59,750 nt of DNA from an uncultured Dehalococcoidales bacterium (lineage in GTDB: Bacteria > Chloroflexota > Dehalococcoidia > Dehalococcoidales > UBA2162): the NCBI GenBank assembly GCA_964396535.1, contig CAYNFT010000001.1, positions 1 to 59,750 of the forward strand, in the 5' to 3' direction. The notes beneath the pieces are model-generated. The model saw nothing but the letters and a program-made list of their open reading frames with translations, did not search any database and had not been told where the DNA came from. Positions 19,515 through 23,739 of the stretch are shown here, piece after piece (positions within the stretch are counted from its first letter, which is position 1; the number at the start of each line of letters is the position of its first letter). Made by a program: the position numbers and the translations under genes.

Positions 19515-20299
19515 GCCATATTGATGCTGTCTTCAAACAGCCGGGACACACTGCTTTTATCCCGTATGTTACCGTAGGTTATCCAAGCATTGAGGCTACC
19601 TTGAAGGTGGTTCCTCTTCTTGCCAGCAGCGGTTGCGATATAGTGGAGCTTGGGATACCCTTCTCCGACCCATTGGCCGATGGCGTCACCATACAAAAGG
19701 CGAGTTTTCACGCTTTGCAGAATGGTATTACGCCTAAAATTTGTCTAAAAGTAGCAAAAGAATTGAGCCAAAAGGTTAATATACCGCTGGTGTTTATGAC
19801 CTACTTTAATCCGGTCTTCAGCTATGGTCTTGAAGAATTCTGTAGCGCCTGTGCCAAGTCTGGTATTGGTGGCCTAATCATACCTGACCTGACTCCGGAG
19901 GAAGGCTCAGGGCTGGAAACCATCGCTCTGAAGCAAGGGCTCGACCTCATTTATCTTCTGGCTCCGACCAGTACTGAAGCGCGTGTCAGGCTAGTGGCAG
20001 AGAGGTCCCGGGGATTTATATACCTAGTTTCAGTGACCGGGGTTACCGGCGCCAGGGATAGACTGCCTGCTGACCTGGAGGCATTTGTTGGCAGGGTGAG
20101 GCAAGCGGTCAGTAAGCCGCTTTGTGTTGGCTTCGGGATATCTACTCTAGAGCAGGCAAGCCAGGTAGCCCGCATAGCTGACGGGGTGATAGTGGGCAGC
20201 CGAATAGTTCAGCTTATGGAGGCTGACGAATCAATGGGAAAGGTGGCGGATTTCGCCAAAGAATTAAGGCATGTCCTTAACCAGCCAGGCGGGATTTAG
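19511..20299 (+). CDS. trpA: tryptophan synthase alpha chain
   Basis: 262 aa. [23 protein letters not shown]. 4-nt overlap with trpB. Confidence 0.95.
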
Positions 20300-20380
20300 A
20301 TTTACTAACCGGAAGAGCTTTCACCCGGATTCGATTTCCAACTGACACCAATTCATCACTTCATGCCTGGGTAATAACAG

Positions 20381-20416
20381 AAGGTTGGATATACGTATGT
20401 ACGTATATCCAACCTT
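20381..20416. terminator. perfect 16-bp inverted repeat between convergent trpA and a small Zn-ribbon gene
   Basis: aaggttggatatacgt/atgt/acgtatatccaacctt. There is no clear U tract, so terminator function is inferred from position only. Confidence 0.4.
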
Positions 20417-20447
20417 ACTTAGACCACAGATGTTTATGATATCGGCT

Positions 20448-20588
20448 TTAGCTCTTCCCGATTCTGAACATCTTAGTACCGCATGTTGGACAGGTCCCCT
20501 GAGTAGCCGGCTTGCCATTCTTCATGGTTATAGCCTTGGGGTCCCTCATTTCCTTTTTGGCTCGGCACTTCACACAGTATGCTTCCAT
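20448..20588 (-). CDS. small zinc-ribbon protein (DUF5679-like)
   Basis: Not in the ORF track (46 aa): MEAYCVKCRAKKEMRDPKAITMKNGKPATQGTCPTCGTKMFRIGKS. Two CxxC pairs. SD ggaggtagg 4 nt upstream of ATG 20588. Confidence 0.65.
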   Translation of the reverse strand: MEAYCVKCRAKKEMRDPKAITMKNGKPATQGTCPTCGTKMFRIGKS

Positions 20589-20760
20589 CAGCCTACCTCC
20601 CTTTTTGGTTAGAAAGCATAAACCATTTCATCCTATAATGTCAAGAGCCAGATAAAAATATTGTAGTTTTTTGGGAAGCAAACTTCCCTTGTAATGCCAT
20701 GGTTCTTAAGCTAAAATAGCGGATATGTTGTTACTAATCATATGAACAAGAGCAGGTTAT

Positions 20761-20790
20761 TTGACATTATCGTATTAGTGTGGTTAAAAT
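20761..20790 (+). promoter_or_regulatory. sigma70-like promoter TTGACA-N18-TAAAAT
   Basis: TTGACA 20761-20766, TAAAAT 20785-20790, 38 nt upstream of the CetZ-like start. Confidence 0.4.
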
Positions 20791-20827
20791 GGCATAACAA
20801 CTCATATATCTAGTATCGAGGTGGGAA

Positions 20828-22003
20828 ATGAAATTAGTGGTTATAGGTCTGGGGCAATGTGGCGGCAGGATTGCCGATGAGTTCGCTCGGCTGAATAACA
20901 AAGCACGGAGCAATCGCGGAATTGAAATAGTTACTGGTGCATTCGCTGTTAACACGGATGCTGCTGATTTAAGCGGGCTAACCAGCATAAGGCGCGATTA
21001 CCAGCACAGAATCCTCATTGGAGGTCGGAAGACTGGTGGTCACGGCGTAGGCAAAATAAATGAACTGGGTGCTGAGATAGCCAGAGCAGATGCCGACAAG
21101 GTTATAGATGCCATCAGGACAACCAAGCGGTTCTATGAAACAGATGCTTTCTTACTGATCGCCGGTGCTGCTGGTGGCACCGGCTCGGGAGGCCTACCAG
21201 TAGTGACACAGCATGTTAAGGCGCGCTATGTGGATAAACCTGTGTATGCTGCTGTCGTCCTTCCCTTTGAGCATGAAGAGCAAACAGAGGAAAGGACGAC
21301 ATATAACGCAGCCACCTGCCTTAAGTCTACCTACGCAGTAGCTGATGCTGTATTCCTTATTGATAATCAAAGGTATATTAGAAAAGACTCCTCGCTTAGT
21401 AACAACCTGACCAAAATAAACGCCCTAATAGCTGAGCCATTTTATGGTATACTCTGCGCCGGCGAAGAGAAAAAGCCCAAATACATCGGGGCGAAGTTGC
21501 TCGATGCCGGCGATATTATGCAGACCGTGGTAGGCTGGACAGTACTGGGCTATGGTACATCACAGCTTCCACTGCTCAGGTTCCCCGGTGAACGGACGCG
21601 CGATTTCAGGAAGAAAGGCAGCGAAACTCAAAAGGGCATCATGGCAATGGACGCAGCCATAAGTGAATTATCACTCAACTGCGACCCTGCAGATTCAAGG
21701 AGAGCCTTGTATCTAGTCTCCGCACCCTCCAGGGAAATGAATGTAGACCTGATTAAGGAACTCGGCGACTACCTGAGAAATATAGCGCCACAGGCTATAA
21801 TAAGGAACGGCGATTACCCCAGACAAAGAGGCATGTTAGATGTTAGCGTAATCCTGTCTGAACTAAGCAATGTGGAAAAGGTCAGGAATTACTATACAAC
21901 GTCAACTAGCCTTATTCCTAAGATGAAAAAGAGAGCGGCAGAAACAAAGGTCAAGCTTAAAGAAATTGAAGACACCTCAAAGGATGTTCCGTCGCTATTA
22001 TAA
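20828..22003 (+). CDS. tubulin-superfamily GTPase, CetZ-like
   Basis: 391 aa. MKLVVIGLGQCGGRIADEF (tubulin-like GQCG), GHGVGKINELGAEIA, AGAAGGTGSGGLP (GGTGSG signature), LIDNQRY, RNGDYP near the C-terminus. From memory this is colinear with archaeal CetZ1. Confidence 0.8.
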   Translation: MKLVVIGLGQCGGRIADEFARLNNKARSNRGIEIVTGAFAVNTDAADLSGLTSIRRDYQHRILIGGRKTGGHGVGKINELGAEIARADADKVIDAIRTTKRFYETDAFLLIAGAAGGTGSGGLPVVTQHVKARYVDKPVYAAVVLPFEHEEQTEERTTYNAATCLKSTYAVADAVFLIDNQRYIRKDSSLSNNLTKINALIAEPFYGILCAGEEKKPKYIGAKLLDAGDIMQTVVGWTVLGYGTSQLPLLRFPGERTRDFRKKGSETQKGIMAMDAAISELSLNCDPADSRRALYLVSAPSREMNVDLIKELGDYLRNIAPQAIIRNGDYPRQRGMLDVSVILSELSNVEKVRNYYTTSTSLIPKMKKRAAETKVKLKEIEDTSKDVPSLL

Positions 22004-22025
22004 CGAGATAATCTGAGCTTATTTT

Positions 22026-22088
22026 GCCAGCTTTACCAAGCTAGTAATCAACTTGATATACTAGGGTTATGTAGAGCTGGCTTTTTTT
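22026..22088 (+). terminator. structured terminator after the CetZ-like gene
   Basis: gccagct ... agctggc enclosing ctagta/tactag, followed by ttttttt. Confidence 0.55.
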
Positions 22089-22161
22089 AAAAAGAAAATC
22101 CATCCTTCCTAAAATTCCTTTGGAAATCAGCCAGTTATAGAGTATAATAGAAGCAACGAAA

Positions 22162-23739
22162 ATGGCTTCGCAGGTCTTTTATCGCAAATGGCGTCCCCAA
22201 ACATTGGCTGAGGTAGTCGGCCAGGAACCAGTAACGCAGACGCTACGCAACGCTCTCACTAGCGGTCGTATATCTCACGCCTATCTTTTTTGTGGTCCCC
22301 GGGGAACAGGTAAGACCAGCACCGCACGCATTTTGGCTAAAGCGGTGAACTGTCTGAACAATGGCAACGGTGAACCGTGCAATACCTGCTCCATGTGCCA
22401 GGCAGTAACCGAACTCAGGGCTTTAGATGTTATAGAAATTGACGCCGCCAGTAACACAGGTGTTGATGATATTCGGAGTCTGCGTGAGAAGGTCAATTAT
22501 GCTCCCAACCAGGCGCGTTACAAGGTCTATATCATAGACGAAGTCCATATGCTTAGTAGCAGTGCCTCTAATGCCCTGCTCAAAACCCTGGAGGAACCAC
22601 CTTCACACGTTATCTTTATCCTGGCTACCACTGAAGCCCATAAAATCCTGCCCACCATCATGTCGCGATGCCAGCGCTTCGATTTCCGGCGTCTCTCTCA
22701 GGCGGATGTAATTTCAAAACTAGACCGTATTTGTCAGAGAGAAGGCATTCACACAGAGCCAGCAGCGCTACAGCTTATTGCCAAGAGCGCTACAGGTAGC
22801 CTGCGGGATGCCGAAAACCTGCTGGAACAGCTAACCACTTACTATGGCTCTGAGATTGGTCTCCAGCAGGTTCAGGTTGTCCTGGGTATCACGGGCGACT
22901 GGCGAGCCAAAGAGCTGGTTAAGCACATTATAAATAATGACATTTCTGCTGGGGTGGCAACGATAAACAGCGTTAATAGTGACGGACTGGATTTAAGGCA
23001 GTTTAATCGGGAACTGGTGGAATACCTCAGAGGACTGCTTCTAATAAAGACCGGCTCCGATGATGCTGTAGACATGGTTGCCGAGGACATAGTCGAGCTA
23101 AAGGAGTTAGCAGCTAAGGCTCCCCTCGAGCAGATATTGAGGGCGGTCAGGCTCTTCGGTCAACTTGAGCTTGGTTTTAATAACTACGCCACCTTACCCC
23201 TGGAGCTGGCACTGGTCGACTGCTCCCTCACATCCGAGGGAGAAAAGGGAAGCCCTGAAAAGCAAATCGAGTACGAATCACCTCAGCCCCAAAAAGTGGC
23301 TACCCCACCTCCCGCACCATCCTACTCTGAAAAACCAAAAGCCGAGCCCGCTCCGGCCAGTGTTCCAGCGCCAGAACCAGTAATGGCTGCTGCTACCACC
23401 CCGCCAATAGAATCCGGTAGCGAGGTTGAGCAGTTAAGACTAAACTGGAAGCAGGTTATTGAACGAGCTCCGCAGGATACCAAAAGAACGCCGGCTATCG
23501 CCATTCTTAGAAGTGCCGGCGTTAAACCGATTTCATTTGAAAATGATACTGTAGTCCTGGCCTTCAGGTATCAAAATCACAAGGAATTGATTGAAAAGGT
23601 AGAAAATCATCAGGTAGCTGAAAAAATCCTTAGCAACTTCTTGGGGCATCCCTGTCATGTGAACTGTATTCTGGAAGACAACCACCTGCTGAGGGAAGCA
23701 TTAAAGATAGGTAAACGAATTGACGTGGAGGAAAAATGA
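22162..23739 (+). CDS. dnaX: DNA polymerase III subunit gamma/tau
   Basis: 525 aa. GPRGTGKTS Walker A, Zn module CxxCxxC, SRCQRF, Pro-rich linker. Confidence 0.95.
   Translation: MASQVFYRKWRPQTLAEVVGQEPVTQTLRNALTSGRISHAYLFCGPRGTGKTSTARILAKAVNCLNNGNGEPCNTCSMCQAVTELRALDVIEIDAASNTGVDDIRSLREKVNYAPNQARYKVYIIDEVHMLSSSASNALLKTLEEPPSHVIFILATTEAHKILPTIMSRCQRFDFRRLSQADVISKLDRICQREGIHTEPAALQLIAKSATGSLRDAENLLEQLTTYYGSEIGLQQVQVVLGITGDWRAKELVKHIINNDISAGVATINSVNSDGLDLRQFNRELVEYLRGLLLIKTGSDDAVDMVAEDIVELKELAAKAPLEQILRAVRLFGQLELGFNNYATLPLELALVDCSLTSEGEKGSPEKQIEYESPQPQKVATPPPAPSYSEKPKAEPAPASVPAPEPVMAAATTPPIESGSEVEQLRLNWKQVIERAPQDTKRTPAIAILRSAGVKPISFENDTVVLAFRYQNHKELIEKVENHQVAEKILSNFLGHPCHVNCILEDNHLLREALKIGKRIDVEEK

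Follow-up and report, generated by a model that had tools for sequence, protein, structure and literature searches.

The best-described relatives of the gene analysed here are the archaeal CetZ proteins, for which structures of CetZ1 and CetZ2 of Haloferax volcanii (4b46 and 4b45) and of a CetZ of Methanosaeta thermophila (3zid) have been solved. CetZ-focused papers call the family archaea-specific and leave bacteria unmentioned (PMC11621097, PMC9856176). CetZ-like sequences in Chloroflexota–Dehalococcoidia were listed by Santana-Molina et al. (2023) with matches of about 1e-10 to a hidden Markov model of the CetZ C-terminus (PMC9871819), and the gene described here, at positions 20828–22003 on the forward strand of contig CAYNFT010000001.1 from an uncultured Dehalococcoidales bacterium (assembly GCA_964396535.1), encodes a member of that same protein group. 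The window, that is, the whole stretch of 59,750 nucleotides (nt) that was analysed, is the entire contig C1 of a 2.1-Mb, 152-contig genome (G000; Dehalococcoidales, Chloroflexota) that is 91% complete, and the DNA sequencing runs that contain the sequence are salt-marsh metagenomes.

The gene is thus of an already known kind: the existence of such sequences has been published in one sentence (PMC9871819), and the databases annotate them as “tubulin/FtsZ family protein” (NCBI) or, for some, as “tubulin-like protein CetZ” (JGI). Whereas the published account calls the group sparse and paraphyletic, we found it to be monophyletic (100/100) and present in 15 of the 16 sampled genomes of the order and in SAR202. 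Beyond that account, the family is multi-copy, syntenic, transcribed in a cultured relative and confined to genomes without wall genes. Literature searches for CetZ or tubulin-like proteins in Chloroflexota and Dehalococcoidia turned up no study devoted to them, and the monophyly of the family, its near-universality in the order, its link to wall loss, the split gene block and a second, archaeal-type copy in the class appear to be unpublished.

A CetZ-like protein in a bacterial genome

The product of the gene is a CetZ-like protein of the tubulin/FtsZ superfamily with an intact GTP-binding site (loops T1, T3 and T4), and its scores with the Pfam families Tubulin (PF00091, 113.5 bits) and CetZ_C (PF21011, 51.8 bits at a cut-off of 21.6) are far beyond chance. 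A sequence search of the Protein Data Bank (PDB) placed the three solved CetZs on top (4b46, 5e-44; 4b45, 9e-29; 3zid, 1.5e-12), ahead of the best FtsZ (4e-10) and of tubulins, BtubAB and RepX/TubZ (about 1e-4). In an AlphaFold2 model built from a 39-row alignment (predicted local distance difference test score (pLDDT) 88.9, predicted template-modelling score 0.87), the predicted fold is nearest to the solved CetZ structures: Foldseek ranks 1–4 are 4b46, 4b45 and 3zid, with a target-normalised template-modelling (TM) score of 0.93 and a root-mean-square deviation of 2.0 Å for 4b46, and every FtsZ chain ranks below them at a TM score of about 0.83. This fold ranking is supportive rather than independent, as the input alignment included archaeal CetZ and biases the model toward the CetZ fold.

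An earlier first-pass annotation of the window, made from the sequence without database searches, had described the protein as CetZ-like rather than FtsZ-like and as colinear with Haloferax CetZ1. Both descriptions stand: CetZ_C, the sequence and fold rankings in the PDB and a tree that splits FtsZ from all other rows at 100/100 agree on the first, and a HMMER alignment of query residues 1–359 with residues 1–362 of 4b46 (E 5e-44) supports the second. All motifs that it quoted are found (GLGQCGGRIADEF at amino acids (aa) 7–19, GHGVGKINELGAEIA, AGAAGGTGSGGLP, FLIDNQRY and IRNGDYP), as are the tubulin-type signatures GQCG and GGTGSG. The features of the gene and of its flanks are as follows.

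20761–20790, plus strand: sigma-70-type promoter-like site, TTGACA, 18 nt, TAAAAT; 11 of 12 consensus positions
20818–20824, plus strand: Shine–Dalgarno-like GAGGTGG, 3 nt 5′ of the ATG; seen directly in the sequence
20828–22003, plus strand: coding sequence of the CetZ-like tubulin-superfamily GTPase (the dnaX-side “A” paralog), a 391-aa open reading frame (ORF) with an ATG start
20834–21376, plus strand: N-terminal GTP-binding domain (aa 3–183) with T1 GQCGG, T3 GGHGVG and T4 GGTGSG; PF00091, 113.5 bits
21389–21895, plus strand: C-terminal (activation) domain of the CetZ type (aa 188–356) with the T7 loop LDAGD (D226, D229) and the RNGDYP block; PF21011 CetZ_C
21875–21979, plus strand: predicted long C-terminal helix (aa 350–384) and linker; DSSP on the AlphaFold2 model, pLDDT about 81–87
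21980–22000, plus strand: C-terminal peptide K-D-V-P-S-L-L, a tail motif common to close homologs
22026–22088, plus strand: intrinsic-terminator-like extended hairpin (22026–22081), then U7; RNA fold of 22004–22100

Residues expected at the nucleotide-binding and T7 sites are conserved. In a 39-sequence alignment with archaeal CetZ, G7, G9, Q10, G12, G73, G75 and G116–G121 are invariant, and R326, D329 and P331, likewise aligned with archaeal CetZ, are invariant or almost so. The T7 residue D229 corresponds, as counted from the alignments, to E218 of Haloferax CetZ1, the conserved acidic T7 position, which is also the Asp of FtsZ; within the bacterial clade, 96% of sequences have Asp here.

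The protein shares with archaeal CetZ the Tubulin and CetZ_C domains over about 360 colinear residues, the T1 Gln, the T4 GGTGSG, the GHGVG, DN and R-x-GDYP blocks, and a long C-terminal helix ending in a short hydrophobic tip; in the alignment, both carry the R-x-GDYP block and the same final Leu. Archaeal CetZ are its best PDB matches in sequence and fold. The hosts are alike in carrying several paralogs besides a true FtsZ and in being without peptidoglycan. It differs from archaeal CetZ in its bacterial host, in the T7 catalytic residue (Asp here, Glu in CetZ), in having four extra residues after the LPFE strand and less length in the variable loop at about aa 246–262, in a tail that is basic-acidic in the bacterial family (KD[IV]PSLL) as opposed to the acidic E-L-E-P-L-F, and in a bacterial neighbourhood of gap, dnaX and two helical proteins.

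With bacterial FtsZ it has in common the superfamily, the GTPase fold, the T7 Asp and a C-terminal peptide of the D-[IV]-P-x-[FL]-L type, but T1 reads GQCGG instead of GGGG, T4 has Ser instead of Thr, and the Pfam search reported no FtsZ_C domain. A divergent FtsZ was rejected as an identity, since the NCBIfam ftsZ equivalog TIGR00065 scores 65.2 bits, far below its cut-off of 295.2, and the genome has a true ftsZ beside ftsA on contig C42. Tubulin, BtubA/B, Asgard tubulins and TubZ/RepX share the GQCG of T1 and the GGTGSG of T4; their PDB matches are weak and cover part of the GTPase domain (AtubA 7e-5, BtubB 2e-4, RepX 5e-4), and Tubulin_C gave no match in the Pfam search. A TubZ or PhuZ of plasmid or phage origin was likewise rejected, given a chromosomal housekeeping context that is conserved across the order and a RepX match of just 5e-4.

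The genome contains three tubulin-superfamily genes, namely ftsZ (contig C42), the CetZ-like gene of the window and a CetZ-like paralog (contig C70). The first-pass annotation had suggested looking for a canonical ftsZ elsewhere in the genome; it is a 377-aa protein with GGGTGTG and the peptide DVPSFLRR, and its gene adjoins ftsA. In this FtsZ (L001:886-2019), DVPSFLRR is not terminal and is followed by about 25 more residues (PLFSHRRQVATPSMKLDTIPSHSTSH) with a second D-x-I-P-S motif.

Distribution, gene order and wall-gene loss

The survey of related bacterial genomes that the first-pass annotation had proposed was carried out as a six-frame protein search of 401 Chloroflexota genomes, 28 of which are positive, all within the class Dehalococcoidia: 15 of 16 genomes of the same order, 12 of 29 in the rest of the class and none of 355 outside it. 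Carriers typically have two to three CetZ-like paralogs. A search of the negative genomes with the CetZ_C profile found no further CetZ-like genes, and among 14 named control genomes the same profile matched Haloferax volcanii alone. Close homologs of the protein are 83–91% identical to it, are all 391–392 aa long and are labelled Chloroflexota or Dehalococcoidales, while a deep-branching subfamily of 418 aa carries SAR202 or Dehalococcoidia labels in a second homolog search. At two loci (L036:7001-9305 and L037:7001-9305) the SAR202-type 418-aa gene is followed by a conserved 327-aa ORF without a Pfam family, in surroundings of resolvases, IS605/TnpB genes, a group II intron reverse transcriptase and DDE transposases.

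Several genomes of the order have the gene flanked by gap on one side and dnaX on the other. The fullest arrangement (G168) reads gap, a CetZ-like “B” copy, two convergent ORFs encoding helical, charged proteins, a CetZ-like “A” copy and dnaX; a second genome (G236) has the same five-gene block without dnaX. Of the two G168 copies, the dnaX-side A copy is the closer to the gene of the window (72% identity, against 64% for the B copy). Contig C70 of its own genome carries, at C70:5107-9956 (part of which is visible in L003), gap, a CetZ-like gene and two ORFs of 163 and 649 aa. The paralog there, 390 aa long and 72% identical to the protein of the window, follows gap, and the two ORFs are convergent, helical and highly charged (about 64% E/K/R/Q/A/L) and homologous, at 33–38% identity, to those between the CetZ-like pairs of G168 and G236. 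Neither the helical neighbours nor the ORF downstream of the SAR202-type gene matched any family in Pfam.

The block is therefore split in this genome, and the gene of the window is its dnaX-side A copy. With gap, a CetZ-like gene and both helical ORFs on C70, the A copy on C1 and an intact block in relatives, the stand-alone look of the gene is a local rearrangement. Its description as monocistronic accordingly holds for the look of the gene in this genome and not for its relatives, where the ortholog sits at one end of a conserved block that also encodes another paralog and the two helical proteins. An old gene, it has been inherited vertically across Dehalococcoidales and SAR202 with the gap, CetZ-like gene, dnaX synteny retained, and the transfer into this genome that had been suggested for it was not borne out.

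The structure of the locus is otherwise as the first-pass annotation had given it. The 391-aa ORF at 20828–22003 is ATG-initiated; the promoter-like site at 20761–20790 is the top-scoring one within 20250–22250, as judged by consensus match alone; and the RNA fold of 22004–22100 has a free energy of −27.8 kcal/mol (z −4.1), with none of 200 shuffles equally stable. A simple terminator scan overlooks this hairpin owing to the long loop of 22026–22081. Both flanks are bacterial, with trpB and trpA upstream and dnaX, ybaB and recR downstream. Between trpA and the CetZ-like gene, a perfect palindrome with 16-bp arms (AAGGTTGGATATACGTACATACGTATATCCAACCTT; window 20381–20416) was flagged by the scan as a minus-strand terminator-like site.

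All 28 carriers are without SEDS, MreB, MurG and penicillin-binding protein (PBP) transpeptidase. SEDS, true MreB, MurG and PBP transpeptidase are confined to the same five basal genomes of the class, all without a CetZ-like gene, and ftsA–ftsZ is retained in the carriers tested. This distribution of wall markers agrees with an earlier study that places the loss of the dcw cluster in the ancestor shared by Dehalococcoidales and SAR202, basal lineages having kept it (PMC10608941). The association of the CetZ-like gene with wall loss is suggestive (Fisher one-sided p about 0.006 over 46 related genomes, uncorrected for phylogeny). Thirteen Dehalococcoidia genomes are CetZ-less, wall-less and MreB-less (G268, G045, G114, G159, G195, G260, G284, G300, G324, G332, G356, G380 and G396). 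The protein is thus not a general requirement for life without peptidoglycan, and a need for the gene in all wall-less Dehalococcoidia was rejected, these 13 being negative also in the CetZ_C profile search.

A search for RNA runs containing the sequence of this gene found none. The ortholog in a cultured relative is transcribed: for a single-contig genome of the same order (L010), pure-culture transcriptomes match 96–98% of sampled words of the ortholog, and contigs from three pure-culture RNA-Seq runs span it completely with 0 mismatches at a depth of about 1500–2300, the adjacent gap gene having a depth of 700–1360 in the same runs. Since contig depth reflects expression poorly, these values show that the ortholog is transcribed but not how strongly. 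A groundwater metatranscriptome adds a contig of 1335 nt that covers just the ortholog. A network study of D. mccartyi reported extra “FtsZ” transcripts, DET0589 and DET0636, besides ftsZ DET0343 (PMC5102406), and these two are probably CetZ-like paralogs.

Position relative to archaeal CetZ

To place the family, we computed a tree of 111 sequences (LG+C20+F+G4, 1000 ultrafast bootstraps) comprising 29 proteins from Dehalococcoidia genomes, 38 representatives of 50%-identity clusters, 30 named archaeal CetZ-type rows and 14 FtsZ rows. The archaeal CetZ-type rows include the two PDB sequences and all non-FtsZ tubulin-family genes of seven named archaeal genomes, and the FtsZ rows are 13 archaeal FtsZ1 or FtsZ2 and the genome's own FtsZ. 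For the deep bacterial branches, where few cluster names were available, taxonomy was inferred from gene context and the second homolog search; a scan of named genomes with 9 sequences brought up archaeal loci only.

The bacterial clade of 51 rows is monophyletic (100/100) on a long stem (0.87). The canonical archaeal CetZ clade (support 95/85) contains CetZ1 and CetZ2 of Halobacteria, Methanomicrobia, Archaeoglobi, Syntrophoarchaeum/ANME-1, Hydrothermarchaeales, and representatives of Thermococci (P0200) and Nitrososphaerales. The bacterial clade, canonical CetZ and a small pair labelled Bathyarchaeia and “Chloroflexota” form a three-way split whose order the tree leaves unresolved (93/89), and divergent archaeal proteins branch deeper. 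Canonical CetZ is understood here as by Brown & Duggin (2023), with Thermococcales as the deepest group accepted. As the bacterial clade lies outside the canonical clade, which includes the Thermococci representative, the family is, on this tree, a sister lineage of canonical CetZ and not nested within it, a position that fits the published label “CetZ-like”.

Residue patterns were compared over 42 columns diagnostic for CetZ versus FtsZ, recomputed from our own alignment. The protein of the window is in the CetZ state in 18 columns, in the FtsZ state in 8 and in another state in 16; the Thermococci representative gives 21, 0 and 21, Hydrothermarchaeales proteins are in the CetZ state in 34–37, and the genome's own FtsZ has 1 column in the CetZ and 32 in the FtsZ state. 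Identity to any archaeal CetZ is about 30–33%. Membership in the canonical CetZ family was not upheld: the phylogeny with FtsZ and CetZ that the first-pass annotation had proposed sets the protein apart from FtsZ (100/100), as expected, but places it in a separate bacterial sister clade, outside canonical CetZ.

Proposed function, origin and meaning

As the best explanation of the whole we favour, with moderate confidence, a GTP-dependent, membrane-associated filament that would serve the shape or the division of a wall-less cell and belong to a CetZ-like family likely of archaeal origin. By analogy with what is established for FtsZ, tubulin and CetZ, the protein would polymerise head to tail in a GTP-dependent manner, the T7 loop (D229) of one subunit completing or activating the GTPase site of the next. 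The KD[IV]PSLL peptide at the end of the long helix may recruit the filament to a membrane partner, for which FtsA is the sole recognisable candidate. The filament would then help to shape or divide a cell that has neither peptidoglycan nor MreB, and the B paralog and the two helical proteins possibly act with the A filament.

The tail is well conserved. A motif x-[IVL]-P-x-L ends 119 of 120 close homologs (KDIPSLL in 90, KDVPSLL in 9) and 39 of the 51 rows of the whole bacterial clade, and the last Leu (L390) is invariant in bacterial and archaeal CetZ (alignment A3). The protein's own tail, KDVPSLL, matches the peptide DVPSFL of the genome's FtsZ at five of six positions; archaeal FtsZ end in [DE]-I-D-[FY]-[LVI]. 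SepF was absent from all 11 genomes tested and was rejected as an anchor, FtsA then being the one FtsZ-type anchor that can be recognised; binding of the tail to FtsA is put forward purely as a hypothesis.

Several points speak against the favoured explanation or narrow it. Polymerisation, GTPase activity, localisation and partners are inferred for every bacterial member, and the RNA evidence consists of assembled contigs of a relative and not of this organism. The tail motif is not bacteria-specific: the archaeal CetZ tips E-[LI]-[ED]-[PS]-L-F are homologous to it and a Bathyarchaeia relative ends in KDIPPLL, so that the tip is probably ancestral, judging from the alignments, and its likeness to the FtsZ peptide may follow from that. 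A bacterial novelty copied from FtsZ was rejected on the same homologous tips. The 13 wall-less genomes of the class without any CetZ-like gene and the phylogeny-uncorrected p value loosen the link to wall loss, and the bias of the structural model bears on the fold ranking. The tree, in turn, was built without tubulins, TubZ and named Thermococcales and Methanosarcinales CetZ, and an approximately unbiased (AU) test leaves a tree with all archaeal sequences in a single clade unrejected (p 0.32).

A variant that we judge unlikely, though the strongest of the alternatives, assigns the same family to cytokinesis and not to shape: the protein would join the FtsA-anchored Z ring through its FtsZ-like peptide and constrict the cell without septal peptidoglycan synthesis, perhaps in the manner of the second FtsZ (FtsZ2) of wall-less archaea. 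Its case begins with the five-of-six match between KDVPSLL and DVPSFL, but this tail motif is common to archaeal CetZ and may be ancestral. FtsA and FtsZ are kept and SepF is absent, yet the gene is never beside ftsA or ftsZ, its conserved neighbours being gap, dnaX and the two helical proteins. While all carriers are without SEDS, PBP and MurG, 13 wall-less genomes of the class manage without the gene. The D. mccartyi networks tie DET0589 and DET0636 to growth and division transcripts (PMC5102406), and archaea without pseudomurein reportedly need two FtsZ proteins (as quoted in PMC9856176); the closest characterised relative, CetZ1, however, contributes to rod shape and motility according to the abstract of PMC11621097.

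The favoured explanation also includes an archaeal source of the family, which is the most parsimonious reading. The first-pass annotation had proposed an archaea-to-bacteria transfer; this is plausible from the distribution but not statistically established. Nesting of the bacterial clade among archaea, considered as proof of direction, is not significant in the AU test, and the direction rests on distribution, that is, on one derived part of one bacterial class as against many archaeal lineages, and not on topology. Most likely, as we infer, an ancestor of the dcw-less Dehalococcoidia received the family from an archaeon, at a point close to the base of the sampled canonical CetZ radiation or beyond it.

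It is improbable, in our estimate, that the family is instead an ancient paralog, older than the separation of the domains, with Dehalococcoidia and some archaea as its only surviving carriers, or that it passed from bacteria to archaea. Such an origin would be in keeping with a bacterial clade that is nested in no sampled archaeal order and sits on a stem of 0.87, with the unrejected reciprocal monophyly (AU p 0.32) and with the several FtsZ-state residues that were kept, the T7 Asp among them (8 of 42 diagnostic columns). It fits poorly with a bacterial range limited to a single derived section of one class (with 0 of 355 other Chloroflexota genomes positive), the basal wall-bearing lineages being negative, while the archaeal relatives are labelled Halobacteria, Methanomicrobia, Archaeoglobi, Hydrothermarchaeota, Thermococci, Nitrososphaerales and Bathyarchaeia. 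The deeper branches of the best tree are archaeal non-canonical proteins, and a clearly archaeal-type CetZ in one Dehalococcoidia genome shows gene flow in the archaea-to-bacteria direction.

That last gene, found in a class-level relative (L149:9495-10553, equal to G204:C5:24494-25552), encodes a canonical archaeal-type CetZ of 352 aa with a CetZ_C score of 123.6 bits; it scores 262 bits with Haloferax CetZ1 and 145 with the protein of the window, and in the tree it joins a cluster labelled Nitrososphaerales. The contig truly belongs to Dehalococcoidia, with PanB, FabD and M20 being 64%, 53% and 59% identical to their counterparts in G000 and a GC content of 0.487, and the gene looks like a second, independent CetZ acquisition by the class. 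A 378-aa protein labelled “Chloroflexota bacterium” (P0182, MFC1919407.1) pairs with a Bathyarchaeia sequence (P0197; 100/99) outside both the bacterial clade and canonical CetZ, and it may represent yet another, third line of archaeal-type tubulin homologs within Chloroflexota, or else come from a mis-binned contig.

An assembly artefact, with the gene on chimeric or contaminant archaeal DNA in a metagenome-assembled genome, can be practically dismissed, as the first-pass annotation had thought: a 152-contig assembly from salt-marsh metagenome runs leaves room for one, but contig C1 is genuinely bacterial, with bacterial genes on both sides of the gene, orthologs have the same neighbours in single-contig genomes of the order, thousands of homologs at 83–91% identity are labelled Chloroflexota or Dehalococcoidales, and identity to any archaeal CetZ is only about 30–33%.

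The value of the gene lies in uncharacterised biology and not in its discovery: it belongs to a conserved, expressed, multi-copy sister family of CetZ in bacteria that independently lost the wall, and carriers include cultured organisms of the Dehalococcoides type that are used in bioremediation. We tentatively suggest, going further, that the dcw-less Dehalococcoidia might run a multi-tubulin cytoskeleton made of A, B and the two helical proteins, an archaeal module gained around the loss of peptidoglycan and MreB and docked through an FtsZ-type peptide (to FtsA), which would set the flattened-coccus shape, aid constriction, or both. If true, this cytoskeleton would be an archaeal-style morphogenesis at work in a bacterium. 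The family adds a data point on the tubulin superfamily's history across domains, and it offers a natural test of the idea that CetZ-type filaments provide a general means of shaping or dividing a cell that is bounded by a membrane and an S-layer alone.

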